DNA of 64,000 nt, from the IMG/VR virus record IMGVR_UViG_3300025648_000015, positions 52,146-116,145 of that record; one strand, given 5' to 3'. The DNA is from a virus. The notes under the pieces were generated by a model, which saw only the letters and a list, made by a program, of their open reading frames with translations, searched no databases and had not been told where the DNA came from. Below, in pieces: positions 48,224 to 63,867 of the stretch (within the stretch, counting starts at the first letter, position 1; every line of letters begins with the position of its first letter). The translations under genes and the position numbers were made by a program.

Positions 48224-48502
48224 CTATTCTTCTTCAATATCAAAGATATCTTTGTTATATTGAGTCGCTGCTGATAACGTATTGAGATATATATCCATTG
48301 CACCTTCTAAACCTAGGTCAGCTTCTAAACTGTTTCTAATTTCAGTAGGTGATTTCCCTGTATCTTTTGCAATTGTTATAATACATGTTAATAACATTTT
48401 ATTATAATAATCCACAATCTTTTCAATTGCTTCAAACCCTACTTCATGTGCTACCAAAGCCATACTAATTTGATCTTGTTTATTAACAAATGGATCTTCC
48501 AT
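48224..48502 (-). CDS. Hypothetical protein (last gene of the minus-strand block)
   Basis: SD AGAAAGGA. Confidence 0.65.
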   Translation of the reverse strand: MEDPFVNKQDQISMALVAHEVGFEAIEKIVDYYNKMLLTCIITIAKDTGKSPTEIRNSLEADLGLEGAMDIYLNTLSAATQYNKDIFDIEEE

Positions 48503-48514
48503 TACATTTCCTTT

Positions 48515-48712
48515 CTATTGTAAAACATGTGCTTCTATATACCAGATTTCACCATTGGGTAAAATAGTTTCCCAAAATCCCATAGTGTCCTCATGTTCTT
48601 GCCATCCTTCTAAATTCAAAGCATTCTTTGCTGCATCTAAGTTAGAATAAATGCCAGAGATTTCGGCAGCGCCATCTCCAACATCATATAGTAGGGCGTA
48701 TACTATTGTCAT
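48515..48712 (-). CDS. Hypothetical protein
   Basis: Operonic. Confidence 0.6.
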   Translation of the reverse strand: MTIVYALLYDVGDGAAEISGIYSNLDAAKNALNLEGWQEHEDTMGFWETILPNGEIWYIEAHVLQ

Positions 48713-49004
48713 TGTTAAATAACTCCTTCATTGCCCATTCTATACGTTCTTTAGCATCCATGCCACCCCACCAGCCTTCGTCTAGGTTGCGCACTGCTTC
48801 GTACCTACATTCCATCATAACAGGACAATCTTTGCATATATTTTTGAGCTTGTGACGTTGGCTTAATGTAGGCATAGAACTAGCATAAATAAAATCACTA
48901 GTGTTTTTACCATAACAATTGCCTTCTTCTGCCCAAGTAAGGCCTTTATTATCGGGTAAAGTTTGAACTAACTCTTTTAACTTCCACCTACTAATCTTAC
49001 TCAT
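48684..49004 (-). CDS. whiB: Second WhiB-family regulator
   Basis: W....NC......F...IC.DCPV..EC...A......GWWGG....ER. Confidence 0.85.
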   Translation of the reverse strand: MSKISRWKLKELVQTLPDNKGLTWAEEGNCYGKNTSDFIYASSMPTLSQRHKLKNICKDCPVMMECRYEAVRNLDEGWWGGMDAKERIEWAMKELFNNDNSIRPTI

Positions 49005-49008
49005 ATTA

Positions 49009-49692
49009 TTACCTTTCTATCGATGATTGATTTATATTTGCTTTCATACCACTATCTATTCCATCATTATATCCTGATGATGCTACAATTTTACGTTGAG
49101 TAGCAGGATGACGATCTAATTTTTGGAAATATTCTTCAATTGCATGTTGTTTATTTCTAACAACTAATGCAACTGATGTATTGTTTGTTTCATTAATAAC
49201 TTTTGTTTTTGATTCTCTTATACGTTCATTGATTGTTATACAATAACCGCCAAAGAAACCTTTAACCCAAGTTTTAGTATGTATTTTTTCTTTGCTATTC
49301 TTTTTAATTTTATTTAGCTTAATAAACATTTCATTGACCATGTCTAAAGATAAAATATTATATAATGTTAAACATAATTCAATATCACTCTTGTATCCAT
49401 AGATCATGCAATATTCTTCGCCTCGTAAAACTTTGCAAAAGTTATGCTTTGCAATTGAATTAAGCAATACACTCTTATCAATAGCATATGGTTTAGGTGT
49501 TTCAATACGTCTAGCAACAATATTTCCTTCACCAATATGATCATGAAGTTGAGCTTCTTCAATTTGATATTTGGTAATTAACTCTTGTGCTAATGATTGT
49601 GCTGAACTTACTTCACCAGGTTTGTCACTACTATCTGCAACGCGAAGTAGTTTCTGAACCTTAGAAATAATATCAGACAACTGCATAACCAT
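49009..49692 (-). CDS. DUF2786-domain protein
   Basis: II.KV.KLL..A.S....E...A...AQ.L..KY.I; F..G....I.ER; GY..G...G..A.I. Confidence 0.8.
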   Translation of the reverse strand: MVMQLSDIISKVQKLLRVADSSDKPGEVSSAQSLAQELITKYQIEEAQLHDHIGEGNIVARRIETPKPYAIDKSVLLNSIAKHNFCKVLRGEEYCMIYGYKSDIELCLTLYNILSLDMVNEMFIKLNKIKKNSKEKIHTKTWVKGFFGGYCITINERIRESKTKVINETNNTSVALVVRNKQHAIEEYFQKLDRHPATQRKIVASSGYNDGIDSGMKANINQSSIER

Positions 49693-49711
49693 AGTATTAC
49701 CTCCTTTCTTT

Positions 49712-49773
49712 TAGTCTAGCCTCATCGGTGTAGAGACAACTACCTTCTACATACGCCTCACGGCGTTTCGGCT
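49712..49773 (-). ncRNA. Hammerhead ribozyme HH1 (type II, U4C core variant)
   Basis: AGCC-GAAA-CGCC(GTGA)GGCG-TA^TGTAGA(AGGTAGTTGTC)TCTACA-CCGATGA-GGCT; loop TAGTT can pair with downstream GACTA. Confidence 0.85.
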
Positions 49774-49776
49774 TTA

Positions 49777-50019
49777 TTATAAAGCGTCTTTTAAATCACA
49801 GAATAACTTATGAAAATGATCCATTTGTTCTCCCATTGCATTGATTGCTTTATTAAACATATCTGATAAACTTTCATAAAAAGTGATATCAAGAGTGTTT
49901 TTGTTTTCGTTATAGATTTTAAACCCATTTAACAACTCATCTAAACGATAACCAATCGTAGAAATATTGTTGATAAGTTCGCTTACTTTCTCTAACTTTT
50001 CTTCATTACTTACTGTCAT
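49777..50019 (-). CDS. Hypothetical protein
   Basis: Stop 4 nt before HH1. Confidence 0.6.
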   Translation of the reverse strand: MTVSNEEKLEKVSELINNISTIGYRLDELLNGFKIYNENKNTLDITFYESLSDMFNKAINAMGEQMDHFHKLFCDLKDAL

Positions 50020-50260
50020 ATTACCTAACTTAAATATTTAATGCAACCAATTTAAAATTAATGTTTCATACTTACTATTTTACCTCCATAGGTTTATATT
50101 CACTACAATATGTCTCAAACTTGTTTTTACGAGTCCAAGATCCACATTCACGGCATTCTCCAGACTCTAAATCTTCAAATTCTGGATTCTGACTAATGTT
50201 CCATAAATGTGCTTCATATTCATGATCGCACCAACAATCTGGTTCATTCATATTTGCTCC

Positions 50261-50467
50261 TTACTTGATATTATCTAATGCATTATTAAGTATTTCAGTT
50301 ATTTCTTTTTCTTTATCTCCTGTTTCTGTATTTTGATCAGGAAAAACCCATTCATCAATATTAGGAATGTAAACAGTTTTACCTTTTTCAAATTTAGCAA
50401 AAGTAGTAGGCCAATCTATAAGCCAACCATTTTCTTCTGACCATTTTACTACACAATGATATTCCAT
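50261..50467 (-). CDS. Hypothetical protein
   Basis: Operonic. Confidence 0.6.
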   Translation of the reverse strand: MEYHCVVKWSEENGWLIDWPTTFAKFEKGKTVYIPNIDEWVFPDQNTETGDKEKEITEILNNALDNIK

Positions 50468-50792
50468 TATGTTTCCATTTCTATAATTATTTCTTCTAGT
50501 TGATTACAACGATCTAATAAATTAGATATAACATCTTTAGCTTCTGCTAATGTAGTTGGTTCTGTTAAACCAAAGTCATTTAATGTTAATTCTATCATTA
50601 TTAATTAAATCCATAATGCTCAAAGATTTGAGCTCTAGCATCTTCAAGTTCATTATTGAGGTCTTGCAATGTACGATTATCAATACTCTTATCATTACCA
50701 AACCAATCAATTAGATCTTGTCTAGTTACTTCATTCATTTTACTCCTTCTCTCTTATATTTGCTACTATGCGTAATGCTTCTGTTCCTTACT

Positions 50793-50853
50793 ATTAGCCT
50801 ATCTTATCAATGCATGGTGGCTAATCCATACAGACGCCTCCCGGCGTTTCGAT
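50793..50853 (-). ncRNA. Hammerhead ribozyme HH2 (type II, U3-A8 covariant core)
   Basis: ATC-GAAA-CGCC(GGGA)GGCG-TC^TGTATGG(ATTAGCCA)CCATGCA-TTGATAA-GAT; 7-bp pseudoknot ATTAGCC/GGCTAAT. Confidence 0.88.
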
Positions 50854-50859
50854 TCTTTA

Positions 50860-51042
50860 CTATTCTATTTCCTCAATAATTATATCATTGATAGTATTTT
50901 TAATAGCAAATCCATTGTGTTCTAACCATCCCAATGCTTCTTTTTCAATTACATCGTCATCTTCAGAGTCAGATGTAATCGTAGTTATGAGCACAGCATA
51001 GTCAAACACAAACTGTACATTATATATATATGTTTTACTCAT
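50860..51042 (-). CDS. Hypothetical protein (cassette gene between the direct repeats)
   Basis: SD AAGGAG lies inside the repeat. Confidence 0.65.
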   Translation of the reverse strand: MSKTYIYNVQFVFDYAVLITTITSDSEDDDVIEKEALGWLEHNGFAIKNTINDIIIEEIE

Positions 51043-51199
51043 TCTCCTTCTCTCTTATATTTGCTACTATGCGTAATGCTTCTGCAAATCCTTGAGCAAA
51101 TCCATTCTCAAAATCAGTTTGCTTAGCCATTGCTAAGTTAATGTGATGACGAGTTTCATTACTCAATTGATAAAAAGATTTGTCTAATTTTTTACCCAT
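51035..51199 (-). CDS. Hypothetical protein (54 aa, not in track)
   Basis: MGKKLDK...AEALRIVANIREKENE; its 3' end is the duplicated 41 bp. Confidence 0.6.
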   Translation of the reverse strand: MGKKLDKSFYQLSNETRHHINLAMAKQTDFENGFAQGFAEALRIVANIREKENE

Positions 51200-51201
51200 T
51201 A

Positions 51202-51618
51202 TTATTCCTTTGTTGTAACTAAACTATTAAGATAAATAAATACCTCAAAAGGTACTGGCTCTAGTTCCCAATTCCATACAACATCGTCTTCGTTGTAGTT
51301 TTGCCAGTCAACTTTATCATAGTTAACTACCTTAATACCAACAGTTTGGTCAATGTGATTTACAACAACTAACTTCCATGTATCACCATGAAGAGAAAGT
51401 CCGATACCATATCCAGTATCAGACATTACATCATCTTTAATCATTTCACTGAAGATAATACGGTTAAGGTATTCGTCATCACTCCAACGACCCTTGCCAC
51501 GTACTATAGCGTCAGCTACAACGTTTTCTAGATGACTAGCTCCCCAATGGGTATATAGATAGATAGAATGCTCTGATCCATATGTACCAATAAGTTGTAC
51601 TTGTCCACGGTCTCCCAT
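51202..51618 (-). CDS. Conserved phage hypothetical protein (MGDR...YLYTHW.G family)
   Basis: MGDRG, IYLYTHWG, RW.D..YL.RII, TGYGI. Confidence 0.7.
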   Translation of the reverse strand: MGDRGQVQLIGTYGSEHSIYLYTHWGASHLENVVADAIVRGKGRWSDDEYLNRIIFSEMIKDDVMSDTGYGIGLSLHGDTWKLVVVNHIDQTVGIKVVNYDKVDWQNYNEDDVVWNWELEPVPFEVFIYLNSLVTTKE

Positions 51619-51672
51619 GATTACCTACTTTCTTACTTGTTTGTTTATTTGTTTAACGTCTCCCGACGTAGT

Positions 51673-51713
51673 GCCTTGAGTAGGAGTCGAACCTACTCTA
51701 CGACCATCAAGGC
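51673..51713 (-). ncRNA. Anticodon-less tRNA mimic TL1, followed by a GGGA hairpin (51656-51669)
   Basis: GCCTT-GATGGTCGTA-GAGTAGG-TTCGACT-CCTACTC-AAGGC. Confidence 0.8.
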
Positions 51714-51719
51714 TACCAT

Positions 51720-52103
51720 TTACCACCAACTATCGTAATATATTTCCATATCTTGTCCAATAGCTTTCATAGCATCATCAATAAACTTAAGGTCAATTTC
51801 TCTATCTTCTGGTAAACTTTCACCAAAGAAAAAACCTTGAGTTACTGGGAGTTTTTCATGTATTACAGCATGTCTTAAATTAACAAGGTCTTGAAATGTT
51901 ACTCGAACTGGTTGACAGTTAAAAACACCTTCTCCACCTTTACTTTCATATAACTTTTCCATCCAACCTTGAATGTTAGGATGTTTACGCCATTGAGCAA
52001 TTAAAAAGACTTTATCTTCAGATTGTTCATGAGTCCAAACATAACTTAAATCTGTATTGTTTGGATGAGGCATAACAGCATATGCATATTGGTCTAATCC
52101 CAT
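51720..52103 (-). CDS. Conserved phage protein (MGLD.Y...WRK.....W...Y.SWW family)
   Basis: MGLDQY, WRKHPNIQGW, FNC, LP.T.GFFFG, YYDSWW. Confidence 0.75.
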   Translation of the reverse strand: MGLDQYAYAVMPHPNNTDLSYVWTHEQSEDKVFLIAQWRKHPNIQGWMEKLYESKGGEGVFNCQPVRVTFQDLVNLRHAVIHEKLPVTQGFFFGESLPEDREIDLKFIDDAMKAIGQDMEIYYDSWW

Positions 52104-52153
52104 TATGTTTCCTTTCTTACTTATTTATTTACTTGTTTGTGTCTCCCGACAGC

Positions 52154-52194
52154 ACCCCAAGATAGAATCGAACTATCTTACAACCATTTGGGGT
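52154..52194 (-). ncRNA. Anticodon-less tRNA mimic TL2, followed by a GGGA hairpin (52140-52151)
   Basis: ACCCCA-AATGGTTGTA-AGATAG-TTCGATT-CTATCT-TGGGGT. Confidence 0.8.
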
Positions 52195-52202
52195 TACCTT
52201 AG

Positions 52203-52859
52203 TTAGCTAGGCCAACTAATAGGAATTTCTTTACCATTAATAACAATGATTTTAGGTGTTTCCATTGCTTTATCAACAGCTTCAGATACTTCTTTAATTG
52301 TTTCCATCATAATAGATGGCATTGCTGCTAAACGTTGTTTCACCTCAGCTTCAACTGCTTGTTGCATTTCTGCATCAGACATAGTTGGAGCTAAAAACTC
52401 TTCCATAATTGGATCTTCTTCAATAGCATCTTCTGTTGTTACTGCTGCAGAAGTTGTTGCAGAAGGAACAGAAGTTTTATTTATATAACTTCCGTTAATA
52501 ATATAATATGGATAAAGTAAGGATTTCTTACCAGGAGCACCTTCATTTAACGATATAGACAACATCTTAGTAAGGAATTCTTCACGACCAGCTTCTTTGC
52601 TTGTGTGTTTAGAATTCACATCTTTGATGTAATCTTCAATTACAGCTTTAGCTGCTTTGTGATCAGTAAAGTAGAATCTACCAATTACACGACGAGCACG
52701 AGCATCTTCTGAATTGTACCACGTACAACGTACAAATACTTCAGAATAATAATCTCCGTGTTCTTTGTGTACAGTAAATGCTAGGTCTACAACATCACGA
52801 GTACGGTTGGAAGTCCAACCAGCACCATTAGCTTTAGCTACCCAAGTCATTTCTGACAT
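52203..52859 (-). CDS. Hypothetical protein
   Basis: Long ORF with A-rich leader. Confidence 0.7.
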   Translation of the reverse strand: MSEMTWVAKANGAGWTSNRTRDVVDLAFTVHKEHGDYYSEVFVRCTWYNSEDARARRVIGRFYFTDHKAAKAVIEDYIKDVNSKHTSKEAGREEFLTKMLSISLNEGAPGKKSLLYPYYIINGSYINKTSVPSATTSAAVTTEDAIEEDPIMEEFLAPTMSDAEMQQAVEAEVKQRLAAMPSIMMETIKEVSEAVDKAMETPKIIVINGKEIPISWPS

Positions 52860-52886
52860 ATTATCTCACTTTCTTTTTCTTACTAT

Positions 52887-52946
52887 TGACCTATCTCATC
52901 AGTGCATGGAGGTCATCCCATACATACCCCTCCCGGGGTTATCGAC
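52887..52946 (-). ncRNA. Hammerhead ribozyme HH3 (type II, GAUAA insertion variant)
   Basis: GTC-GATAA-CCCC(GGGA)GGGG-TA^TGTATGG(GATGACCT)CCATGCA-CTGATGA-GAT; pseudoknot TGACCT/AGGTCA. Confidence 0.88.
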
Positions 52947-52949
52947 TAA

Positions 52950-53108
52950 TTAATCGATTGACTGCAATGGTACACCAAAATAGTCATTAAGACCTTCTTG
53001 TACACCACAAGGTGAACAAATATCAGTCTTGTTATCAACCCTAGACAAAGCAGGATATCCTGTCCAAGATTCTTTACAAAGTGGACATATAAATGTTTTT
53101 ACTGTCAT
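52950..53108 (-). CDS. Small Zn-finger protein (CPLC...PALSR.DN.T.IC..CG; 52 aa, not in track)
   Basis: Common phage motif; ATGA overlap. Confidence 0.7.
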   Translation of the reverse strand: MTVKTFICPLCKESWTGYPALSRVDNKTDICSPCGVQEGLNDYFGVPLQSID

Positions 53109-53305
53109 GATTTTTCTATCATCCCTTCAGGCATTTTACAATAGCCATTTTCTATTAAATCCATAGCCATACGACCATAGTGTCCTTGTAGTTTCCAAGC
53201 CATACCATTGTCAATTAACTCTTGAAAAAGTTGGATAATTTCATTACCATCAAGTTCATCTTGTTCATAACTTATTATTTTATTTGTTAAATCATTAATA
53301 ATCAT
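53105..53305 (-). CDS. Conserved phage protein (FQ.LID.G.AW.LQG.YGR.A family)
   Basis: Motif recognisable. Confidence 0.7.
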   Translation of the reverse strand: MIINDLTNKIISYEQDELDGNEIIQLFQELIDNGMAWKLQGHYGRMAMDLIENGYCKMPEGMIEKS

Positions 53306-53694
53306 TATTTATCTTCTTCAAGTTGCCAATTAAATTTATCATCTTGTACTTGATTTAATTCATCATACAATGATTGAGCCATTTTTGCATGTTCTTCAGG
53401 CGTAGAAGGTACTTGTGACCTAAAATCAACACCAAATACAACGCCTACGTTACTAGCAAATGTAATAAGGTTTTGTAAAACCTCAGTACCTGCTTTAACA
53501 GCTTGGTCAAATGTATGTTTGAAGTCATCTGACTCTACATAACTATTAAACTCTGAAGGAAGTTCACCAGTTACATATTGACGATAAGCTTCAATGGTTG
53601 TCTGAATTGTGATTTGCATTTTAATACACATCATCAAATTATCAACTTCATTTTTAATGAGTTGTAATTTTAATTCATCTGACATGTTGTCCAT
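53305..53694 (-). CDS. Hypothetical protein
   Basis: Leader follows HH4. Confidence 0.65.
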   Translation of the reverse strand: MDNMSDELKLQLIKNEVDNLMMCIKMQITIQTTIEAYRQYVTGELPSEFNSYVESDDFKHTFDQAVKAGTEVLQNLITFASNVGVVFGVDFRSQVPSTPEEHAKMAQSLYDELNQVQDDKFNWQLEEDK

Positions 53695-53723
53695 CTTACT
53701 CTCTTTCTTGTTTAACTATTATC

Positions 53724-53784
53724 TGACTTGTCTCATCAGTACCCAAGTTGTCATCTTAGGTATACCCCTCACGGGGTTATCGAC
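53724..53784 (-). ncRNA. Hammerhead ribozyme HH4 (type II, GAUAA insertion variant)
   Basis: GTC-GATAA-CCCC(GTGA)GGGG-TA^TACCTAAG(ATGACAA)CTTGGGTA-CTGATGA-GAC; pseudoknot TGAC/GTCA. Confidence 0.88.
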
Positions 53785-54182
53785 TAACGATAATGTCTAT
53801 ATATTTTTGTATCATAAGATTCATCAAAATCTGGTTGTTCAGGAGATGGTGCTCCTTGCCATTCAGATAAAGTCTTAAGAAACCATGTTTCTGCTGCTGC
53901 ATCATCTTTACCATAAAAAACATAGCATAATGTTAACACAGCATCAACTGCTTCTTTAGCTATCCAACTACTTGTAAACTCCCTGGTCAAAAGTATTTCT
54001 TTCTTTTTTGTACCAGGAATAGGACGCATTACTTGTAATATAGCATTATGATTCATAAGATTACTTTGTACGCCTGCTTTTAATGATAAATATAAATTAA
54101 CATTAGTTCTATAATAAACAGTAGTCTTACAATTCCATGATACTTCATCACGAGAACGACGCCAATTAACTTGTCTTGACAT
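53784..54182 (-). CDS. Hypothetical protein
   Basis: Its TAG stop overlaps the first base of HH4. Confidence 0.65.
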   Translation of the reverse strand: MSRQVNWRRSRDEVSWNCKTTVYYRTNVNLYLSLKAGVQSNLMNHNAILQVMRPIPGTKKKEILLTREFTSSWIAKEAVDAVLTLCYVFYGKDDAAAETWFLKTLSEWQGAPSPEQPDFDESYDTKIYRHYR

Positions 54183-54430
54183 GTTCTTCCTTTATTTTAA
54201 TTATAACCAATTGCTAAAATCTTTTAATAATTGATGTATTTCTCCAGTTGTATAACCATCTTCAATGTTATTAACTTCTTCACCGTTAACGTTATATATA
54301 CCTGAATCTAAATTCCCTGCTAGTTTCTTTAATAAATCAAGAAACAATTCTTGAAATTTAGGAAGTTGGTCTGGAGTATCGAATGATATTTCGATCTTCA
54401 TCTTGTTTCCTTGTTGCTCACCGCTTACTC

Positions 54431-54772
54431 TCATAATTCCTCCTCATGGTTATTACTGCATTCACAATCTGATGCGTGAAAAGATTTATCACTAAATTCT
54501 TCTCCAAATAAATACTTAGCATGCTTTTGAATAATCTTAAGAAGAGTTGCCATGTTAATGTTTACAATCTCTGATATGCTTTTGATTGATTCACCAACAA
54601 TTGGTATTTTATCTTCATCAACTTCATGCCAATGCTCAACCGCACCATGTAACCACATAGTAGGTTCACCCATATCCATGAATAGTGTCTTAATTTCACC
54701 TATCATATTACCATAGTTGATTCTGTCACTAGTTTCATGGTCTAAGGCAGCAGTGAATTGCTGTTCATCCAT
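54431..54772 (-). CDS. Hypothetical protein
   Basis: SD AAGGAG. Confidence 0.65.
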   Translation of the reverse strand: MDEQQFTAALDHETSDRINYGNMIGEIKTLFMDMGEPTMWLHGAVEHWHEVDEDKIPIVGESIKSISEIVNINMATLLKIIQKHAKYLFGEEFSDKSFHASDCECSNNHEEEL

Positions 54773-54799
54773 AATTACTCCTTACTTGTTTTGTTTGTT

Positions 54800-55320
54800 T
54801 AAGTGGGCATTTTAACGTCATACCCAGGACGGAGAGTTACAAAAGCTCACTCACAAGGCTAGTGGTTACCTTCACACCACTCAGGTCGTTGGCTCACCTA
54901 TACCACCAACAGGTCGCTAATTAAGGTTTAGACTGACCTCCATGAGCTTCCCCTCATGATGAGTATGTAGTACGATACAAGCGTGTGGGTGCGTTTGAGT
55001 CTGCACCACAATTAGACTCGGTCCCATATAACCGATAAAAGTTATATGGGATTGCCACGTTTTTTGGGTCAGTGACCTAGACCTCATAGTGTGTTGTTAA
55101 GGATGTTACTTCCTACCTAAGCTTCCCCTTTAGGCTGGGTTTGTGAATACAAGACTTGCAACTAGGCACTCTGGATTAATACAACATCCAATCTGGCGGG
55201 TTGACATAGCTGGCATCACAGATCAATAAAGCCCCCTGGCCTATCCAGAAGGGCTATGGAGATGCAACAACAAGAAGGAAAAGCACTCTCCATAACCCAT
55301 CTCAATAGGCTATGTAGAGA
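54800..55320 (-). ncRNA. Large structured ncRNA candidate (tandem pseudoknots, anti-SD loop)
   Basis: ~550-bp ORF-free gap dense in hairpins and loop-to-downstream pairings. Confidence 0.6.
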
Positions 55321-55344
55321 CTTCATTCTTGTTAATAATTGATA

Positions 55345-55643
55345 TTAAAGAATCTCTTCTGCCGAGGCAATAATCTTCTTTAATTCACTTGGAAAATATA
55401 CTCCGTTATTCTCAAGAGATATTTGAAGCTCTTTAAGAATATCAACAAAATTACGAATCATCTCAATTAAGAGATTACGTTGCATTTCCAGTGATTCAGC
55501 CTTTTCATTGTAAAGGCCAACCAATTTATTAACCTTACCAAAAGTCTCAACTAGTTTCAATGCACGATTGCGCATTGCTTCAAGGTCTTCACTTTCAGTA
55601 AACTTGTCACGAATATTCTGCAACTGTTCTTCTGTTACTATCA
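55345..55643 (-). CDS. Hypothetical coiled-coil protein
   Basis: Probable start MIVTEE after the CAAGTAAGAAAG leader (start coordinate approximate). Confidence 0.6.
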
Positions 55644-55711
55644 TTTTATTTACTTTCTTACTTGTAGCCACACTTAATGGTAGTGACCTTCACCATGGGT
55701 AAAACAATTTA

Positions 55712-56086
55712 CTATTCACTATCTTTTGGCATGTAATGATCTTGATGGCCACAACGACCTTCGTTTTCATCACATAAAGGGTGGTGTTGATCATGAAGCA
55801 TGAATGGTGCACCAAGAACTTTAACAGCTTCTTTTTGCATTTCTTCATAAAACTCATTTAACTGATTAATTGCAAGCCCAAGCCCAAGTGGGAATACTTT
55901 TGTAATAAGATTTAAGTCATCTTCTGACCTATCCTCATCTAATAGCATTGCTGCAATTTTAGTAAATGGTTCCATGATTGTACCCATCTCAACGCCCCAA
56001 TCTTTAATACGATTGAGGTAATCAGCATGAGCAATACGTGCCTCTGCTGCTTCGTCAAGTGTTAGGTCGAGATCAAACTCTTCCAT
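55712..56086 (-). CDS. Hypothetical protein
   Basis: SD AAGGAG. Confidence 0.65.
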   Translation of the reverse strand: MEEFDLDLTLDEAAEARIAHADYLNRIKDWGVEMGTIMEPFTKIAAMLLDEDRSEDDLNLITKVFPLGLGLAINQLNEFYEEMQKEAVKVLGAPFMLHDQHHPLCDENEGRCGHQDHYMPKDSE

Positions 56087-56150
56087 ATTACTCCTTTTAT
56101 TGCTTACTTACAGGACCAATTACGGCCCACTGCATACCAAATAGTATGCA

Positions 56151-56216
56151 TGGCACCTGAGGGTCGCTTGATAGACCCCCAGGTCTCTGAGTTTATATAA
56201 CGTTACTCAGGGAACG
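56151..56216 (-). ncRNA. H-type pseudoknot followed by an 11-bp minihelix ending in GCCA
   Basis: CGTT(CCCTGAGT)AACG-TTATATAA-ACTCAG; ACCTGGGGGTC(TATCAAGC)GACCCTCAGGT-GCCA. Confidence 0.6.
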
Positions 56217-56221
56217 CGTGA

Positions 56222-57718
56222 TTAAGACTTGCCAAGCAAAGCAGAACGAATAGGACCGGCAGGCTTATTAATAAGCTTACCTTTCTTAAACATTGATACT
56301 GCTTCTTCAACACTAGGAATCATAATGATCTTGTGTTTCTTGACGAGTTTAGCACACTGAATGATTATTTGATCATTCTGTCCACTACCCATAGATGTAA
56401 CTTGGCCGTCACTGACCCAGACAATGTCTTCGCCATGCTTACGACGACGAATTGCCCACGTCAATGCAGTACCGTCAACACCATTGTTCATACCACCGAT
56501 GTCACCGGTGTCTCGAACACGCCAACCACGATCAGCGAGTAGCCAAGCGTTGGGGCTGTCGCCACCACAATCACTATATGCCATAATGACTGCGGCAGGA
56601 GCTGCCTCAACAATCTCTTCGATGTCTGACTGTTTCAAATTCATAGAACCTGATATGTCAATAACAACGATGCCACCCTTAACTTTGATTTTCTGTCCAA
56701 AGATCCTACGTTCTGGATCTGTAAGCAGACGTGATGGGTAAGAGACACGACGACCTGATTGCATACCACGCTTTTTACGGCGCATATAACCTTTAACCTC
56801 AACGGTTAGTGGCTTGTCATCAGCCCAGACTAACTTACCAAATTCGCCATTGTCATAGTCAAATTCGAAATCATCTGGCATATCATCAGTGTTGAGTGTA
56901 ACAGGTTGATCACCAAGTGTATTCTTGTCAGGATCAAACTTATCAGGATCACCATAGTTAGCTGCACGCTGCTCTTCTTTCTTGCTGTGTATATCCTTAA
57001 TGTCTTTAGGGGCTTTGTACCCAGAAGACACATAGTCAGCAATATCAGAAGCAGCATACAGAGTGTGACGAAAACCAGTTGGGATATTAAAATTACTGTT
57101 AAACCTTACTGGAATGGTATCACCTAACTCAGATGCTGTGCCATTGAAATTGGTTTTCATTGACTTATTGAGTTGACGCAGTCGTTGACTCCATTCAGGT
57201 CTAACGGAACGAATTCCGCTAGCAAAAGAGTCGAAACTCTTAGTGCTATGATTCTGAACAGTGAATTGAACTGCTGCATCCCAAGATCGCATATCACCAG
57301 CTGTAGCCAACCGCTTACCAAAAGTCTTTTCAGCTCCGGTAGGCTCGTGATCCAACTGCTTGACTTTAGCAAACTGTTCTGTAATCGCATTGATGCGAGC
57401 TTGCTCAGCAACACGTAATACATCGGCTGTAATACCGTTGTTATTGTATGCTTTAGCAATACCAGAATAGATTGATGAGTCAAGAGGAGTAACACGAGCT
57501 TCGATAAGCTTCTCAAGCTGTAGACGCTGTGAATGGCTATCCCCCGAAAGAGGAATAGCCATTATACCAGCAATGAAGTCTACTTTAGCTCCGAAGTCAC
57601 CGACAGTTGGAACAATTTCCCAATTGATTGGATCCTTAACATCCTCACGGAATGAAGTAATAACGTTTGGTAACGGCATTACTTCATCTTCAAGGTAGCT
57701 TGGAGTCACTTCACTCAT
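56222..57718 (-). CDS. vWA-domain protein (MoxR partner)
   Basis: MIDAS VVIDISGSM, SDG; adjacent to the AAA+ gene. Confidence 0.8.
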   Translation of the reverse strand: MSEVTPSYLEDEVMPLPNVITSFREDVKDPINWEIVPTVGDFGAKVDFIAGIMAIPLSGDSHSQRLQLEKLIEARVTPLDSSIYSGIAKAYNNNGITADVLRVAEQARINAITEQFAKVKQLDHEPTGAEKTFGKRLATAGDMRSWDAAVQFTVQNHSTKSFDSFASGIRSVRPEWSQRLRQLNKSMKTNFNGTASELGDTIPVRFNSNFNIPTGFRHTLYAASDIADYVSSGYKAPKDIKDIHSKKEEQRAANYGDPDKFDPDKNTLGDQPVTLNTDDMPDDFEFDYDNGEFGKLVWADDKPLTVEVKGYMRRKKRGMQSGRRVSYPSRLLTDPERRIFGQKIKVKGGIVVIDISGSMNLKQSDIEEIVEAAPAAVIMAYSDCGGDSPNAWLLADRGWRVRDTGDIGGMNNGVDGTALTWAIRRRKHGEDIVWVSDGQVTSMGSGQNDQIIIQCAKLVKKHKIIMIPSVEEAVSMFKKGKLINKPAGPIRSALLGKS

Positions 57719-58476
57719 GATAGTGTGAACTCAGGAGTGAGTGTACCAATCTTGAGAGCATCGATGATTGGATCAGCCATTTTGCCGAACACCATACGAG
57801 CTGCACGCTCTACGCCAAAGCCAGGAGCAGAACGAAGCTGCTCGAAAGCCTTGAATGAACGTAGAGAAGCACGTTGGCCAGGTCGGCCTGCAACAATAAC
57901 TGCTGCAAGCTGACGCAATTCCACAGGCAATGCTGCGATCAAAGCTGCTGGATGAGCAGCATCAATCTTGATTGCAATTGGGAATCTGTCCTTAAGTGCA
58001 GTTGGCAACTCGTCCATGTCTTCCAAGTTAGTGGTCATCACAGCCGAGAACCCTGGATTTGGAGTAAACAACTCTCCAGTGTAGGGGTGCTTGAATGATG
58101 ATGATTCAACACTGTCTAGGAATGCAAGCAAAGTTGACTGTACGTCACCACCAGCTTTGTCGATCTCGTCAACAACGAGTCGAGCACCAGTAGTACCATT
58201 GCCGATCCAGGAGCGTAATGCAGCACCTGGGACAAAGGTGAATCCACCAACCTCGTTAGGCATAACTGAACCTGATACGTCAGCATTTGTCATATCCTCT
58301 GAGCAGATAAGACGCTCGGAGCCAGCTTCATTGATGCCGAAGTTGAGGCCAGAGTATGTCTTACCAGTGCCTGGAGGGCCGTAAAGGATGACACGGTCTA
58401 CACCGGCCGCCAGCACGTCCTCCAAGTCCTTGTAGCATTGAGGGACAGGGATGCCTTGGTATGTTGCTTCACTCAT
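57715..58476 (-). CDS. MoxR/CbbQ-type AAA+ ATPase
   Basis: GPPGTGKT, LVVDEID, TTN, L..ALKDRF, S.R. Confidence 0.88.
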   Translation of the reverse strand: MSEATYQGIPVPQCYKDLEDVLAAGVDRVILYGPPGTGKTYSGLNFGINEAGSERLICSEDMTNADVSGSVMPNEVGGFTFVPGAALRSWIGNGTTGARLVVDEIDKAGGDVQSTLLAFLDSVESSSFKHPYTGELFTPNPGFSAVMTTNLEDMDELPTALKDRFPIAIKIDAAHPAALIAALPVELRQLAAVIVAGRPGQRASLRSFKAFEQLRSAPGFGVERAARMVFGKMADPIIDALKIGTLTPEFTLS

Positions 58477-58555
58477 GATTTACTTACTTTCTTCTTGTTT
58501 ATTTTAGTTTGTAGTGCTTCCTTAGCACCAGGGCAGTCACTTATGTGACTCCGGC

Positions 58556-58599
58556 ACTGCAGGTGGGAATCGAACCCACAACATCCTCCATGCTGCAGT
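58556..58599 (-). ncRNA. Anticodon-less tRNA mimic TL3
   Basis: ACTGCAG-CAT(GGAGG)ATG-TT-GTGGG-TTCGATT-CCCAC-CTGCAGT-GCC. Confidence 0.8.
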
Positions 58600-58621
58600 C
58601 CCCCTTATTTAGGGAAATATA

Positions 58622-59095
58622 CTACTTTATTGCATGTACAGTCATTTTGCCATTGTGACGGTCAAAGTTAACTTTAACTTTCTTGTAACCCTTGACTCGT
58701 GCCTCTTTACGCAATTTAGTTTCAATTGCTTGAGCATTCATCTGATGGATAGGCAAGATAGCAGCTAATTCCTTATAACCAATAACATGACTATTTCCAT
58801 CAAGGATTTCGTCAAGCCACCAATTCAATTCAGACCATTTAATTATTACTGATGGTTTTGTATAAGGACGACGCAATGATTTGCTACGTGCATTCATTGA
58901 ATTAACCTTAGTTGGCGGTTTAGCTTTGGTAGCTACGGCTGCTGTTCCCTTACTTGCAGGTTTAACAGAACTATCAAATGATTCAATCAATTCGATAACC
59001 TGAATAACTTGACTTCGGGTAGCAGGACGCCCAAGAACTGTGTCAGTTAACTCTAACGCAGTCTTGATCACCTGGCTCATCTTACTGTTGGACAT
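58622..59095 (-). CDS. Basic hypothetical protein
   Basis: SD AGGAGG. Confidence 0.7.
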   Translation of the reverse strand: MSNSKMSQVIKTALELTDTVLGRPATRSQVIQVIELIESFDSSVKPASKGTAAVATKAKPPTKVNSMNARSKSLRRPYTKPSVIIKWSELNWWLDEILDGNSHVIGYKELAAILPIHQMNAQAIETKLRKEARVKGYKKVKVNFDRHNGKMTVHAIK

Positions 59096-59142
59096 TATGT
59101 CCTCCTTCTTTGTTTGTTGTTTTTGTTGTGCCTCCCGGCAGC

Positions 59143-59183
59143 ACCCCAGGCAAGAGTCGAACTTACCTTACGACCATCGGGGA
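59143..59183 (-). ncRNA. Anticodon-less tRNA mimic TL4, followed by a GGGA hairpin
   Basis: TCCCC-GATGGTCGTA-AGGTAAG-TTCGACT-CTTGCCT-GGGGT-GC-TGCC(GGGA)GGCA. Confidence 0.8.
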
Positions 59184-59190
59184 TACCGTA

Positions 59191-59718
59191 TTACTTACAT
59201 ATCTTCAAATCTGGACCCCATTCGGGAACCAAACTGTGATTACGTTGGTAATACCAGACAGCCACAAGTGATTGTTGATCACCAGTTGCTGCCTGTGGTG
59301 TAGCAGGCAATCCATGTATGTACCCTCTAGCATAATTCCATATGGATGGAATAAACTGATACCAACCAGCCGCCTTAGTGTGTATCTCAACACTAGTTAA
59401 GTGGTTTCTAGACTCATGGTATCGAATACAGGCAAACTGTGCTTGTATATGGATAGGCAATTGTCTTGTTGGATCAGTTGCAGAAGGCCATGCGGCTGTT
59501 ACATCTGTGGACATTGTATTCCATTGCATCAGAGCAGGAACCTCGTGCTTAACCACAATTGGCATGGTTTTCTCATACCAGTGCAGATTAGCCTTAGTTA
59601 CTGTCTGAACCTGATGTGGAAGCGCGGGCGGGCGTGCAGCAAATACTTGCCCCGAAATTCCTAAACTTCCCATCAATAGCAATGAAGTACATATACACAG
59701 CTTACGCAGTGTTTCCAT
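59191..59718 (-). CDS. Secreted lysozyme-like transglycosylase (Rpf/SceD-like)
   Basis: Signal peptide; CIR.HES......A.G.YQF..S.W......P..A....Q...A. Confidence 0.8.
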   Translation of the reverse strand: METLRKLCICTSLLLMGSLGISGQVFAARPPALPHQVQTVTKANLHWYEKTMPIVVKHEVPALMQWNTMSTDVTAAWPSATDPTRQLPIHIQAQFACIRYHESRNHLTSVEIHTKAAGWYQFIPSIWNYARGYIHGLPATPQAATGDQQSLVAVWYYQRNHSLVPEWGPDLKICK

Positions 59719-59817
59719 GTACCTTGCTCCTTTCTTATTTGGAGTGATTCTTACTAACTTCTTTATTAATCACCCCATCGGCCCCCTCCCCTCATCGGGA
59801 GGAGACCTGTGCAATGA

Positions 59818-60219
59818 TTAAAACTGGCTTACACCATCACGCTCTGGATTGTACAAATCAATATGCTGATTCTGTACAAGATGGAAGAAAGAGTTCGCGA
59901 TCTTATGTTCCGTACAGCTATTAACTGACTGGAACGGACCGTGCTTAACCTCTGAACGGATCACTTTCTTAGTGTCCTGAAACAGAGATTTTGCGGTGAC
60001 CTCTTTCAACCTGGGAGTACTAGATATAAGTTGCCAGACACCCGCGGGGGAGACTTCCATCTTAACCACCGCAAAGGTATCTGACAAATCAAAACAACCA
60101 ACGTGTATATGATGACGGCCAAAGTACTCCAGCCACTCATCAAAGACATAGCCCAAAGGACTATCTTCTACACGTACTTGATTGTACTTCCAGCACGCGC
60201 TGTGAAGTGTCATTAGCAT
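59818..60219 (-). CDS. Hypothetical protein
   Basis: A-rich leader. Confidence 0.55.
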   Translation of the reverse strand: MLMTLHSACWKYNQVRVEDSPLGYVFDEWLEYFGRHHIHVGCFDLSDTFAVVKMEVSPAGVWQLISSTPRLKEVTAKSLFQDTKKVIRSEVKHGPFQSVNSCTEHKIANSFFHLVQNQHIDLYNPERDGVSQF

Positions 60220-60380
60220 AACACTACCTTACTTTCTTGTTATTTACTTAGCTTGCATACCCCCAAGCCAGGGAAGGATATATCTGTACTCCCGTACATA
60301 GATAACCCTGTAGCCACCACCATACCTTTATATGATGATGACTACACAGCCACCTATAAACTGCATGTATACCTAAGGTA

Positions 60381-60441
60381 TCCACACCACTTTACACCAC
60401 ATCGCTCCACATCAAACCACTATGCTCCATATGAGTACCAT
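60381..60441. repeat. Helically phased CCAC/CCAT repeats (iteron-like)
   Basis: CCAC ends at 60390, 60400, 60410, 60420; CCAT ends at 60430 and 60441. Confidence 0.6.
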
Positions 60442-60613
60442 TATAGTGGTAAAGAGAGTGCCTTAGATATGTGTAAACATGTCTCAAAATATGCCCATTT
60501 TTATAATATATAGGAAATAAACGGCCACATAGCATAATAAGCTATTACCTTACTATGATCCGATCTTATGCCCTAAGTAAATAAGCTATTATATGTATAT
60601 CGGATCGATATAA

Positions 60614-60629
60614 TGTTCCACGTGGAACA
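60614..60629. promoter_or_regulatory. parS site
   Basis: TGTTCCACGTGGAACA, perfect palindrome matching the bacterial parS consensus. Confidence 0.85.
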
Positions 60630-60713
60630 TACTGACTAACATATGCGGAGATCCAATACACCCGTATATTATTTCCTTACTAGGGTATTAGCTTATTAGC
60701 ATAATAGCCTATA

Positions 60714-60729
60714 CGTTCCACGTGAAACA
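60714..60729. promoter_or_regulatory. parS site (second copy)
   Basis: CGTTCCACGTGAAACA, exactly 100 bp from the first. Confidence 0.8.
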
Positions 60730-60742
60730 TATCGAACTTGAA

Positions 60743-61051
60743 TTAGAAGCTTAGCTCTATTCCATCCAGAGCCCACTCTGATACTAATGGGCATATGGTA
60801 TAGGTAAGTTTGATGGGCTTAGATGAGTAGTTTGTTTCCCCGACGACATGCGCGGAGATAGTATCTTCCTCATCATTAATAACCCACTTGGTAGGTGCTA
60901 TACCATAGAACTCAGTCATACTAATGACTGCCATTTCCACGGATGGAAAACTATCTTGTATAACACCACACCTGGTCTTAGCCTTATGGACAATCCTATC
61001 CCATAGAGTAGGCCGGTCAATCCAAGTTATCACAAATCGCTCTTCGATCAT
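60743..61051 (-). CDS. Hypothetical protein
   Basis: SD AAAGGA after TL5. Confidence 0.6.
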   Translation of the reverse strand: MIEERFVITWIDRPTLWDRIVHKAKTRCGVIQDSFPSVEMAVISMTEFYGIAPTKWVINDEEDTISAHVVGETNYSSKPIKLTYTICPLVSEWALDGIELSF

Positions 61052-61099
61052 GATTATATTCCTTTCTCTTACTTATATTTAGTTTCCCCATAAGGGAGC

Positions 61100-61144
61100 A
61101 CCTCGGAGGGGAATCGAACCCCTCCAAGCCCACCAGGGCGAGGT
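61100..61144 (-). ncRNA. Anticodon-less tRNA mimic TL5
   Basis: ACCTC-GCCC(TGGT)GGGC-TT-GGAGGGG-TTCGATT-CCCCTCC-GAGGT-GC. Confidence 0.82.
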
Positions 61145-61164
61145 TACCTACTACTTACAACCTA

Positions 61165-61932
61165 TTACAGGTTGTTCTTGATGCTCTTGAATGTCTCAAG
61201 GAATAGCATCTGCTGGAACAGCTTCTTCTGGTCCTCAGCCATCTCTTCCACAGTCTCCTGTGAGAGCTTGTTGAGTGCTTCAGAGTACGTGTTGATAACA
61301 CCGCTGGCCTGAACGTGGTTCAGAACGGTGTCGTACACTACAGGTGAACCGAGAGCGATTGCACGGTTCTTGGTAGCACCTGTCTCTGGAAGCATGTAGA
61401 ACTTCTGCTGTGCCAGATCCTTAACGTACAGCTTGATGCGTAGCTCAGCACCGTTCAGCTTCTCGTACTGCTCAATTGCAGTTACGATGCCACTGGTTAC
61501 GTACTGGCGCTGACGCAGCACCTCGTAGTACTGACGACCCTTCTTGTCCGTCAACAGTCCAGAGTTGATAATGAACTGTGTACGGGAACGGTTGTACTTA
61601 CCCGAGTACGCCATAGATGGAGTAACGATGTCGCTTGGCTCGATGCGAGTAGCAACTTCTACAAGCTTACGACCGTACTCGAGGTTCTGGTTAGTGAACA
61701 CATCGAATACACGTCCCATGCTGTAGTCGTTGTCTTGCTTAGCCATGCTGATAGCGTTGCCAGCAATCTGGTCGTAGGTGAATCCACCCAAGATCAGATA
61801 CTGAACAGCGTCCACCAACATCGTGTGCTCTGCTGACGACTCCACTGATGTGTCAACGAAGGCTGCACGTAATACTTCTTGTGCCTCCTCTGCTGTCATT
61901 GATACAGTGTTGGATACATTGAATTCTGACAT
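61165..61932 (-). CDS. Hypothetical protein with GC-richer, biased codon usage
   Basis: 255 aa; 31/60 GC in line 61201. Confidence 0.75.
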   Translation of the reverse strand: MSEFNVSNTVSMTAEEAQEVLRAAFVDTSVESSAEHTMLVDAVQYLILGGFTYDQIAGNAISMAKQDNDYSMGRVFDVFTNQNLEYGRKLVEVATRIEPSDIVTPSMAYSGKYNRSRTQFIINSGLLTDKKGRQYYEVLRQRQYVTSGIVTAIEQYEKLNGAELRIKLYVKDLAQQKFYMLPETGATKNRAIALGSPVVYDTVLNHVQASGVINTYSEALNKLSQETVEEMAEDQKKLFQQMLFLETFKSIKNNL

Positions 61933-62024
61933 ATTGTCTTCCTTCTTTTCTTATTTATTTGTTTCCTCAGTTCCGCTGAGTTACCGGTACTGCTGTTACT
62001 CCTGCATCCCTGCAGTGGTAACGT

Positions 62025-62089
62025 CCCTAGGTCAGATTTGACCCTGACCCTCCGTTGGACTGGAGTCTAGGTGGATAGCCTAGATAGGG
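62025..62089 (-). ncRNA. Perfect four-way-junction cloverleaf followed by a GGGA hairpin
   Basis: CCCTA-[TCTAGG/CCTAGA]-[CTCC/GGAG]-[GGTCAG/CTGACC]-TAGGG with no unpaired junction bases. Confidence 0.65.
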
Positions 62090-62096
62090 TAACCCG

Positions 62097-62378
62097 TTAG
62101 TCTGTCAAGACTACGAAGTTAGGCTTGATATCCTCTACCCTGACTTCGTTATAATCGTTGCATATGACGACCTCGATATCACCTGTGCCACTGATAACAG
62201 TGACACAAAGATCTGCCCCGAGTAGACCAGGTATAAACTTCCTATCTGGATCTTTGCGTACCGAGTTCCATCTGTTTTGTACAGCCAACAGAAGTGAACC
62301 TCCATACAGCTCTCTAGGTTGAGGCTCAGGTGTATCTGACCAGATCATTGTTGACCAGGCTAGAATTGTCTCTGACAT
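62097..62378 (-). CDS. Hypothetical protein
   Basis: CAAGTAAGAAAGGA leader. Confidence 0.65.
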   Translation of the reverse strand: MSETILAWSTMIWSDTPEPQPRELYGGSLLLAVQNRWNSVRKDPDRKFIPGLLGADLCVTVISGTGDIEVVICNDYNEVRVEDIKPNFVVLTD

Positions 62379-62470
62379 ATATTTCCTTTCTTACTTGTTA
62401 TTTACTGCAGATGTCTCACGACATGTAGCCACCACCGAGTTACCCCGGTGATGCCAGCCTGTCTAGAGGC

Positions 62471-62659
62471 TTAGTTACAACCACCACACTCACAACCGCA
62501 GTCAGAACAGCAGTGTGTGCGACGTGGTTCCTCAGGTTCAATTACTTCAACCATTGGGGGAGCAAGCTCACCAGACTCAAACTCATCTAGGAACTCATTC
62601 CAGTCATGGAGACCCTGAAGTTGATTGTATTTGTATAAGCTAATGCTCATATTTATCAT
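62471..62659 (-). CDS. Small protein with Cys-rich C-terminus
   Basis: CCSDCGCECGGC; SD AAGGA. Confidence 0.6.
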   Translation of the reverse strand: MINMSISLYKYNQLQGLHDWNEFLDEFESGELAPPMVEVIEPEEPRRTHCCSDCGCECGGCN

Positions 62660-62667
62660 TTCCTTAC

Positions 62668-62856
62668 TTATTTGTTATTGACAATCACAGTGATGAGCGT
62701 AGCCACGACTGAGGCCACACCTGCAACACAACAAACAATCTGTGCTATGCCCATAGTTGTGTACCACGCCATCTGTACAGCTACTGTTGCTGTTATTACA
62801 GACAACAATAAACTGCTCAATAAGACTATGATGATGTCTATACGGTTCATTTTCAT
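62668..62856 (-). CDS. Small two-TM membrane protein (first gene of the minus-strand block)
   Basis: Hydrophobic; SD AAGGAG. Confidence 0.6.
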   Translation of the reverse strand: MKMNRIDIIIVLLSSLLLSVITATVAVQMAWYTTMGIAQIVCCVAGVASVVATLITVIVNNK

Positions 62857-63108
62857 GCTCCTTGTTTTTCTTACTTGTGTATTTGATGTTGCAAGGCATG
62901 GTCCTTAGTTGTACTAACTATATGAGATAGTCCAAAGAAGTTCATAACCTTTTTGTCTATTCGACGCAAGCATCAAAGTAAGGCGTAAAATAGGGAGACA
63001 GATTTTTGCCTTTTCCAGAAACAAAGGGTTTTAGATGGGACCCCTATTGTAGGGAAAAGGTGCCTTAAAAAAAATGGCGGGGACCCCTTGGGGCATTTTT
63101 AGAAACAT

Positions 63109-63139: not shown

Positions 63140-63159
63140 TAGACACGAAAGGATTCGTC

Positions 63160-63866: not shown

Positions 63867-63867
63867 T

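Follow-up and report, generated by a model that had tools for sequence, protein, structure and literature searches.

The question raised by this locus is what is encoded where a block of small viral genes is interrupted by a gap without any conserved gene. The DNA analysed here, henceforth called the window, comprises 64,000 nt of an uncultured virus (IMG/VR virus record IMGVR_UViG_3300025648_000015, positions 52,146 to 116,145), and all coordinates given below are positions in the window unless they carry a locus number (L). A first-pass annotation, made from the letters alone, had placed a ~400-nt non-coding stretch composed of tandem hairpin and pseudoknot units at 54800–55200 and had proposed a large, novel phage RNA. 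Comparison with relatives showed that the pseudoknot RNA of this locus is conserved, strand-specific, and modular, each unit being opened by an invariant pseudoknot, the head, and that the number of units varies. Almost certainly, the element belongs to a so far undescribed RNA family, modular and structured, whose carriers are uncultured large phages (probably actinophages); it would be transcribed together with the early minus-strand genes. The earlier proposal of a structured minus-strand RNA was thus retained, but instead of one large fold a modular chain was found, i.e., a hairpin (H0) followed by units.

The non-coding character was borne out, and the true extent is wider than proposed. 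The whole intercistronic structured RNA occupies 54773–55344 on the minus strand (572 nt), from the stop codon of the open reading frame (ORF) at 55345–55671 to the ATG at 54772, as delimited by the lack of a conserved ORF, a raised GC content (0.42–0.48 in the gap versus 0.29–0.37 in the flanking genes), homology, and covariation. Small early genes, arranged as a block on the minus strand, surround it, and it is present as a single copy in its 116-kb IMG/VR virus record. All motifs quoted in the first-pass annotation were located on the minus strand, and the impression that the pairings look non-random agreed with the folding statistics as well as with the covariation among homologues described below. 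The minimum free energy of the minus strand was −182.6 kcal/mol compared to −157.5 ± 7.1 kcal/mol in dinucleotide shuffles (z = −3.5), and a home-made finder for simple H-type pseudoknots returned 12 candidates on the gap RNA, compared to 3.0 ± 2.5 (maximum 11) in mononucleotide shuffles. A coding explanation was rejected: the gap contains a 56-aa ORF (54917–55087), but ORFs inside the gap are not common to near-identical relatives (a 75-aa ORF in L003 is absent from L002 and L004), and unit lengths differ by non-multiples of three. Short conserved ORFs had been named in advance as an observation that would speak against the RNA; relatives were compared and no conserved ORF was found in the gap.

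Relatives were reached via two routes, namely the 498-aa protein encoded just upstream of the array and a DNA pattern of the head derived from the shared hairpin; peptide patterns of the flanking small proteins retrieved no relatives from IMG/VR. The 498-aa protein as query yielded five IMG/VR contigs with 52–58% protein identity, and a gene-free gap of 650–820 nt was present at the same place in all five. Searches of the window RNA against these gaps with nhmmer resulted in E-values down to 8e-68, those for L002–L004 being given as 1e-61 to 1e-68. No other segment of the neighbourhood is as well conserved as the gap (79–92% DNA identity versus 65–69% in the coding flanks). The head pattern was found in nine IMG/VR contigs, all members of the array family, and in 48 metagenomic stretches, of which 45 had true copies. 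After removal of duplicates, 33 distinct arrays on phage or metagenome contigs remained, the window counted. The site is syntenic, i.e., located downstream of an AAA_5 ATPase and a ~500-aa protein and on the same strand as the genes. From the strong conservation of the family, an important role early in infection is inferred.

Outside these contigs the family was not encountered. A search for the head pattern across 185,579 prokaryote species (one genome each) gave a single match with a non-complementary stem, i.e., a chance match, and the INPHARED phage records contained no match to the array DNA or to either flanking protein. The window had no match in Rfam 15 at the gathering score. Permissive searches remained negative as well, apart from chance microRNA-like matches to H0 (E ≤ 10 for 54500–55600, E ≤ 5 for 48500–64000, and E ≤ 5 for seven array loci). 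The only transfer RNA (tRNA) predicted by ARAGORN in the window was a tRNA-Arg at 15461–15536, and no transfer-messenger RNA (tmRNA) was predicted in the array region; the statement that signature ends of tmRNA or RNase P are missing is hence in line with the ARAGORN and Rfam scans of the region. No description of the family was found in the literature searched, and with the absence from Rfam 15 the claim of novelty was upheld.

The family layout consists of H0, which is present in many arrays, followed by one to six units, with two units in the window. Each array has one to six heads, spaced 142–426 nt apart in gaps of 390–1700 nt, and this range of unit numbers occurs among relatives at one syntenic site. 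A unit is made up of the invariant head, an adjoining second hairpin (P2), and subsequently a set of interchangeable small pseudoknots and hairpins. The consensus of the head is CUC-A-N7-GGG-AAG-N7′, followed by (A/G/U)AGG, with a 7-bp stem and the hexaloop GGGAAG. Throughout the fetched loci, 133 of 136 GGGAAG occurrences with a CUCA flank had 7 of 7 stem pairs, whereas the number of stem pairs peaked at two to three for the remaining occurrences, which have no such flank. Two-sided changes (112 cells) were seen at each of the seven stem pairs in alignment A3, which comprises 62 distinct heads, and the covariation score of 0.546 was not reached in any of 500 shuffles (0.186 ± 0.014). The loop and the following AGG are (nearly) invariant in these heads and the stem sequence is free. 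The two hairpins that had been listed earlier as sharing AGGGGAAGCT turned out to be the heads of the window, i.e., the defining and covarying motif of the family.

Since flank and loop are both invariant in A3, this alignment cannot test the pairing between them, and rare variant heads were used instead. CUUA was paired with AGGAAG twice independently, on different stems (L006 and L018), so that U-A replaces C-G in a compensatory manner, and CUCA occurred with GAGAAG, GAGCAG, or GAGCAA (U-G to U-A). The first head of the window carries the flank CCCA, for which all Watson–Crick pairs with the loop GGG are possible. Because the variant heads change CUC and GGG in a compensatory manner, the head is best read as a compact 27-nt H-type pseudoknot (stem 1 (S1) CUC/GGG with 3 bp, loop 1 (L1) A, stem 2 (S2) with 7 bp, and loop 3 (L3) AAG). 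The P2 hairpin (AGGN...NCCU, usually followed by UUAA) adjoins 61 of 64 heads, compared to 31 ± 3 in shuffles. With covariance model R1, the 64 kb yielded both heads of the window, one at 51.1 bits (E = 5e-10) and the other at 30.2 bits (E = 4.9e-5), and no further match at E < 0.1. The largest array (L015:70–1660, minus strand, same as L041) has six heads in ~1.6 kb without a gene and ends in the same arrangement of terminal pseudoknot (PK-T, see below), leader, and gene of an 80-aa family.

G-U pairs are common among the conserved pairs, with 34 of 62 cells at the outer (first) head pair and several in H0. As a G-U pair turns into an A-C mismatch on the opposite strand, the fold exists on the minus-strand transcript only. 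This bears on the explanation that the locus is not an RNA element at all, but a site acting at the DNA level (origin, packaging site, or protein-binding iterons), a remnant of decayed or short coding sequences, or a product of chance. The plus strand also folds better than its dinucleotide shuffles (z = −2.7) and the 56-aa ORF exists, which could be taken in its favour; the G-U pairs in the heads and the U-G pairs in H0, the unshared ORFs, and the unit lengths nevertheless argue against it, as does Tandem Repeats Finder, which reported no tandem DNA repeats in the array (the units are too diverged). An explanation without RNA is already contradicted by the covariation and is considered extremely improbable.

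The copy in the window is described in the following from 5′ to 3′ on the minus strand, to which all of its features belong. H0 (55225–55327) is an irregular hairpin of ~30 bp, for which RNAalifold across 11 loci gave 30 pairs and 12 two-sided changes; its apical loop region (55263–55286) contains a pyrimidine-rich loop of 17–18 nt that is invariant in the 11 loci. The subsequent spacer (55140–55224) has a hairpin domain predicted from a single-sequence fold, which is kept in L045 and partly in other loci. Unit 1 (54964–55139) starts with the variant head 1 (55115–55139; flank CCCA, stem of 7 bp including one bulged A, GGGAAG loop, and 3′ strand; 30.2 bits with R1) and the adjoining hairpin P2a (55100–55114, AGGA...UCCU; pairs 26–45 to 29–42 of alignment A4, two of them with two-sided changes). 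The H-type pseudoknot PK-A (55054–55083) consists of S1 GGUC/GACC, an A-rich L3 (CAAAAAAC), and S2 GUCAC/GUGGC. All cells were paired in its alignment (A7, 12 sequences), and two S2 pairs as well as one S1 pair changed on both sides, with S2 versions such as GCUAC/GUAGC and CUAUG/CAUAG in relatives. The PK-A instances were collected by complementarity, so the complete pairing is partly by construction, whereas the differing complementary versions are not. PK-A is followed by the hairpin HP (55021–55052) with 12 bp (RNAalifold on A4: 12 pairs, nine two-sided changes) and by PK-B (54984–55019) with S1 GAGUCU/AGACUC and S2 UGUGG(UGC)/(GCA)CCCACA including one bulged C. A second sequence type of PK-B (S1 GUCCA/UGGAC, S2 GGUGG/CCACC) is compensatory and does not keep the UGC/GCA extension; only these two types were available.

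Unit 2 (54804–54963) opens with the canonical head 2 (54940–54963; CUC-A-UCAUGAG-GGG-AAG-CUCAUGG; 51.1 bits with R1) and the P2b hairpin (54913–54940, GAGGU...ACCUU). Two similar modules of ~28 nt, PK-D and PK-E (54855–54914), each comprise ACCUG, a 5-bp stem, an AGGU-containing loop, and the 3′ strand. Their stems covary (CUGGU/ACCAG in L018 and GGGGU/ACCUC in L023). For the loop AGG the pairing partner is ambiguous: an upstream CCU is retained in the distant homologues L023 and L018, in which the downstream partner is missing. The short hairpin HPx (54831–54854, GAGU...ACUC) recurs in L023, L033, and L009 as read by eye. The array is terminated by the coremin-like pseudoknot PK-T (54804–54831; S1 CGUC/GACG, L1 C, S2 UGGGUAU/AUGCCCA, L3 UUAAA). 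In alignment A5 (26 sequences), all four S1 pairs of PK-T had two-sided changes, and its S2 occurred as GGGUA/UGCCC, GGACA/UGUCC, GAGCA/UGCUC, and GGGCA/UGUCC. The remaining 31 positions up to the next gene (54773–54803) read directly as an A/C-rich leader with the Shine–Dalgarno sequence AAGGAG.

Seven structures had been listed in the first-pass annotation, and the comparative data supported four of them, while three loop-to-downstream pairings were not supported. Compensatory changes were found for GGTC..GACC..GTGGC (PK-A, 12 sequences), for GAGTCT..AGACTC..CCACA (PK-B, from two sequence types only), and for CGTC..GACG..ATGCCCA (PK-T, all four S1 pairs and the S2 variants), and the hairpin reported with 11 bp was recovered as HP with nine of its 12 pairs changing on both sides. 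The fifth structure, GAGGT..ACCTT, is real as a hairpin and general in the family (P2), but its pseudoknot is weak at most: pairings of the P2 loop were possible for 17 of 64 heads compared to 7.8 ± 2.4 in shuffles, the CUAA/UUAG pairing of P2b is itself weak, and the P2 loop was rejected as a general pseudoknot. For GTTGGT..GCCAAC and AGTGGT..ACCACT the stems are kept, and the downstream partners were rejected, as they are absent in L023 and L018 and as a linker of 1–2 nt across a stem of 5–6 bp would be strained.

How the RNA is expressed can be approached from its position. The distance from the upstream stop codon to H0 is ~15 nt, no terminator was found between the array and the next Shine–Dalgarno sequence, and PK-T ends 29 nt before the next start codon. 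Such spacing leaves no place for a dedicated promoter, and with no terminator ahead of the next gene the RNA is most simply read as lying between cistrons of the early polycistronic transcript and not as a free-standing gene. Across the family, 17 of 39 instances of PK-T-type knots lie 23–35 nt before a start codon and are followed by an A/C-rich linker and a Shine–Dalgarno sequence, the others being internal to arrays. Knots of this type (N4-C-UGGGUAU-N4′-UUAAAC-UGCCCA) were also observed in other gene-free gaps of related phages (L002:10290–10321, L002:2287–2318, L005:10927–10958, L007:610–641, L033:1903–1934, and L036:10181–10212), those at L002:10290 and L005:10927 being placed 27–35 nt before a start codon. 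The genome of the window itself has a single knot of this type.

The position of PK-T before start codons and the invariant loop of H0 would suit a translational regulator, in which the pyrimidine-rich H0 loop pairs with the purine-rich leaders or Shine–Dalgarno sequences of early genes in cis or in trans, and in which PK-T serves as an operator in the 5′ untranslated region in the manner of the T4 gene 32 leader. The H0 loop was compared with 76 leaders of the window, and its mean interaction energy was −7.2 kcal/mol versus −5.9 kcal/mol for shuffled leaders. Nine of the 12 best leaders belonged to minus-strand early genes, which contributed 24 of the 76 leaders. The strongest complementarity (−16.7 kcal/mol) was found with the leader of the start codon at 59095, and the array-proximal leader (54772) ranked fourth of 76 with −12.7 kcal/mol; further early leaders with high complementarity were those of the minus-strand start codons at 61932, 53694, 56086, and 58476. 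The enrichment is modest, as early leaders may simply be more purine-rich, and covariation is unreadable here because the H0 loop is invariant and the leaders differ. Kissing of the H0 loop (GCUUUUCC) with the head loops (GGGGAAGC) was considered separately and rejected, since the GGG is better explained by the 5′ CUC and the energies were unremarkable (−8.5 and −9.8 kcal/mol). The T2/T4 gene 32 leader pseudoknot is likewise a compact H-type knot in a phage 5′ leader, with a single-nucleotide loop 1 across a 7-bp stem 2; behind it come an unstructured A-rich segment and then the ribosome-binding site, an arrangement that resembles that of PK-T. There is, however, no sequence similarity, PK-T is one knot among many, and no gene for a single-stranded DNA-binding protein or gp32-like protein was found next to the array. 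Translational regulation, which in addition leaves the one to six units unexplained, is regarded as unlikely.

PK-T also bears a resemblance to coremin (xrRNA-C, with xrRNA standing for exoribonuclease-resistant RNA), a 20-nt sequence of plant and other RNA viruses described as a 4-bp hairpin with a YGAD or YGNNAD loop, a spacer of 8–10 nt, and a required second hairpin (PMC10520033). The 4-bp hairpin of PK-T (CGUC/GACG, 54828–54831 and 54814–54817) has the same stem sequence, followed by a single C as loop 1, and a UUAAA(C) linker precedes the strand by which the hairpin loop is paired. The copy in L023 has 13 consecutive bases in common with the 20-nt coremin sequence (PMC10520033), and UUAAAC or A-rich linkers recur in many other modules of the array family. 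A Watson–Crick variant of coremin, xrRNA-WCC, has a single-nucleotide loop 1 as well, for which contacts of adenosines to the minor groove were put forward (PMC10321173). There are also differences: the loop of PK-T has 8 nt (CUGGGUAU) with U instead of G as its second base and departs from the YGAD/YGNNAD rule, and it forms 5–7 Watson–Crick pairs compared to three, or non-canonical ones, in coremin. The coremin spacer (~8–10 nt, GUUAAACUAC) has a partial counterpart in the window, where UUAAA is present and the CUAC part is replaced by the loop-pairing AUGCCCA; L023 has GACGUUAAACUAC exactly. No second hairpin follows PK-T in the window, where the A/C-rich leader and the Shine–Dalgarno sequence come next, whereas internal copies elsewhere precede other modules. 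In the setting of a DNA phage the relevant nuclease would also be RNase J and not Xrn1, and resistance is a candidate property of PK-T. As loop rule and second hairpin are both lacking in the window, PK-T is placed outside the coremin family and may or may not work alike; the identity of the stem may be a coincidence, because the stem covaries freely in the family.

The explanation that we favour, tentatively and below even confidence, is that the knots act as mechanical road-blocks to 5′-dependent decay in the early transcript, with the last knot capping the message and the invariant heads being read by some factor. The long early transcript would be cut upstream, H0 being shaped like a substrate of RNase III, and 5′-to-3′ or 5′-end-dependent decay by host RNase J or RNase E would stall at the knots. 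The last knot could then cap and stabilise the downstream message, while knotted fragments would build up and their invariant heads would offer several copies of one binding site for a factor. RNase J is present in Actinobacteria. An exonuclease-resistant flavivirus RNA fold was shown to halt bacterial RNase J1 in vitro (PMC5760640). Several points weigh against road-blocks. Ordinary frameshifting pseudoknots do not stop Xrn1 in plant-virus work, and coremin needs both its YGAD loop and the second hairpin right after the spacer, neither of which is present in PK-T of the window (PMC10321173, PMC10520033). A plain road-block would also need neither an invariant head nor an invariant H0 loop, both of which point to sequence-specific recognition, and for capping a message one knot would suffice, so that up to six units and 1.6 kb would have to exist for another reason. 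Moreover, the presumed host is taken from helicase matches alone, at ~30% identity.

The matches in question concern a DnaB-like helicase, which the phage encodes in addition to a tail collar protein, baseplate J, and the alpha subunit of DNA polymerase III. Because the nearest cultured relatives of the helicase are large actinophages of Gordonia, Rhodococcus, and Mycobacterium (~30% identity), an actinobacterial host is likely. A bolder version of the road-block explanation can be formulated, in which a DNA phage would for the first time be seen to possess a natural RNA system resistant to exoribonucleases, and the array would be a prokaryotic counterpart of the subgenomic flavivirus RNA. Tandem coremin-like knots and head knots would stall host RNase J and protect early messages, the fragments would titrate the nuclease or another host factor, and the unit number would set the dose; this version is a speculative one that we consider improbable. 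If the knots do stop RNase J or a similar enzyme, bacteriophages would join the eukaryotic RNA viruses in having a nuclease resistance that is based on RNA structure, and the recurrence of a plant-virus-like core sequence in phage leaders would be explained.

The invariance of the heads can also be explained by binding alone, i.e., by a multivalent protein scaffold or sponge, in which the head (CUC-A-N7-GGG-AAG-N7′ plus AGG) would be bound by a protein of phage or host, the array offering one to six such sites, and the other knots would space and protect them. A loop and AGG that stay (nearly) invariant on a free stem, as in the 62 heads, are what one would expect if a protein recognises the hairpin or pseudoknot, although tertiary contacts within the RNA can fix sequence as well. 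Copy number differs among close relatives, as it does in known sponge RNAs such as CsrB and RsmZ. A candidate partner might be sought in F1, a family of ~130-aa proteins that are small, helical, and equipped with a zinc-binding-like His/Cys motif, and whose genes adjoin the array in 27 of 33 loci, the window having one on either side. The upstream paralogue (124 aa, 55712–56086, minus strand) carries the motif at its C-terminus, the terminal motif of this type being H-x2-H-H-P-x-C-D-G-T-x3-C-G-H-Q-D-H; the downstream paralogue (113 aa, 54431–54772, minus strand) was aligned with it in A6. The AlphaFold2 model of F1 is a plain helical hairpin (predicted local distance difference test 87) without a significant structural match in a fold search, and the whole region is syntenic, so that adjacency of F1 alone says little. 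A scaffold or sponge is held to be possible but rather unlikely; if the heads do bind a protein, they would represent a new multivalent RNA–protein system. Under road-blocks and scaffold alike, the modules are small and defined by sequence (27–32 nt), which makes them directly testable in vitro and possible parts for RNA stabilisation.

Very few large structured phage RNAs are known, and to our knowledge none of them consists of variable tandem units that are each opened by the same 27-nt pseudoknot. GOLLD (RF01998) and ROOL (RF03087) come nearest in size and are likewise large, highly structured, phage-borne, and without assigned function. Their covariance models gave no match even at E ≤ 10, and they are single large folds of fixed architecture, whereas in the array small, independent modules are strung together and the unit number varies. 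Tandem arrays of pseudoknot units are also formed by the type III antitoxin RNAs (ToxI and its relatives, with the phage pseudo-ToxI; PMC5086642, PMC12283969), which phages can carry. Their units are reported to measure 34–45 nt, are near-identical, and lie beside a gene for a ToxN-type nuclease. The units of the array are in contrast 120–310 nt long and diverged, Tandem Repeats Finder reported no repeats, and the flanking proteins have neither a Pfam match nor a PHROG function.

Among the other neighbouring genes, a member of the 80-aa family (54201–54434, minus strand) has counterparts directly after the array in 20 loci, and its model gave no significant structural match in a fold search. 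Just upstream of the array, 56222–58476 (minus strand) encodes the AAA_5 (MoxR-like) ATPase and the 498-aa protein (phrog_33218), which are conserved at this place in 18 and 21 of the 33 loci, respectively. The 498-aa protein had no sequence match in the PDB, and an atlas search returned viral hypothetical proteins together with a faint VWA lead only.

Further gene-free gaps of the same early operon contain additional RNA-like features. A match to the type II hammerhead ribozyme (52885–52947, minus strand) remained below threshold with 24.0 bits versus a gathering score of 37, its CUGAUGA and GAA core being aligned. Minihelices resembling tRNA (T-arm and acceptor-like stem) were located at 58555–58599 (minus strand) and 51671–51713, with scores that are also below threshold (23.9 bits for the Rfam tRNA model and 20.8 bits for a mascRNA-like match).

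A different role for the head has been considered in connection with these features, namely that of punctuation in RNA processing, with the head being a new self-cleaving ribozyme or an endonuclease site by which the transcript is cut into unit-sized RNAs. Weinberg et al. reportedly found, in 2015, new ribozyme classes beside known ones, and the hammerhead-like match and the minihelices of the same operon would fit such a setting; the invariant unpaired residues of the head could, in addition, form a catalytic core. On the other hand, no Rfam ribozyme model matched 54500–55600 at E ≤ 10 or the seven array-rich loci, and a 27-nt pseudoknot of 3 + 7 bp leaves little space for an active site, so a processing signal appears very unlikely. 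The same early arm also comprises two long stretches, 60220–60742 and 61933–63159, that are without an ORF of at least 100 aa.

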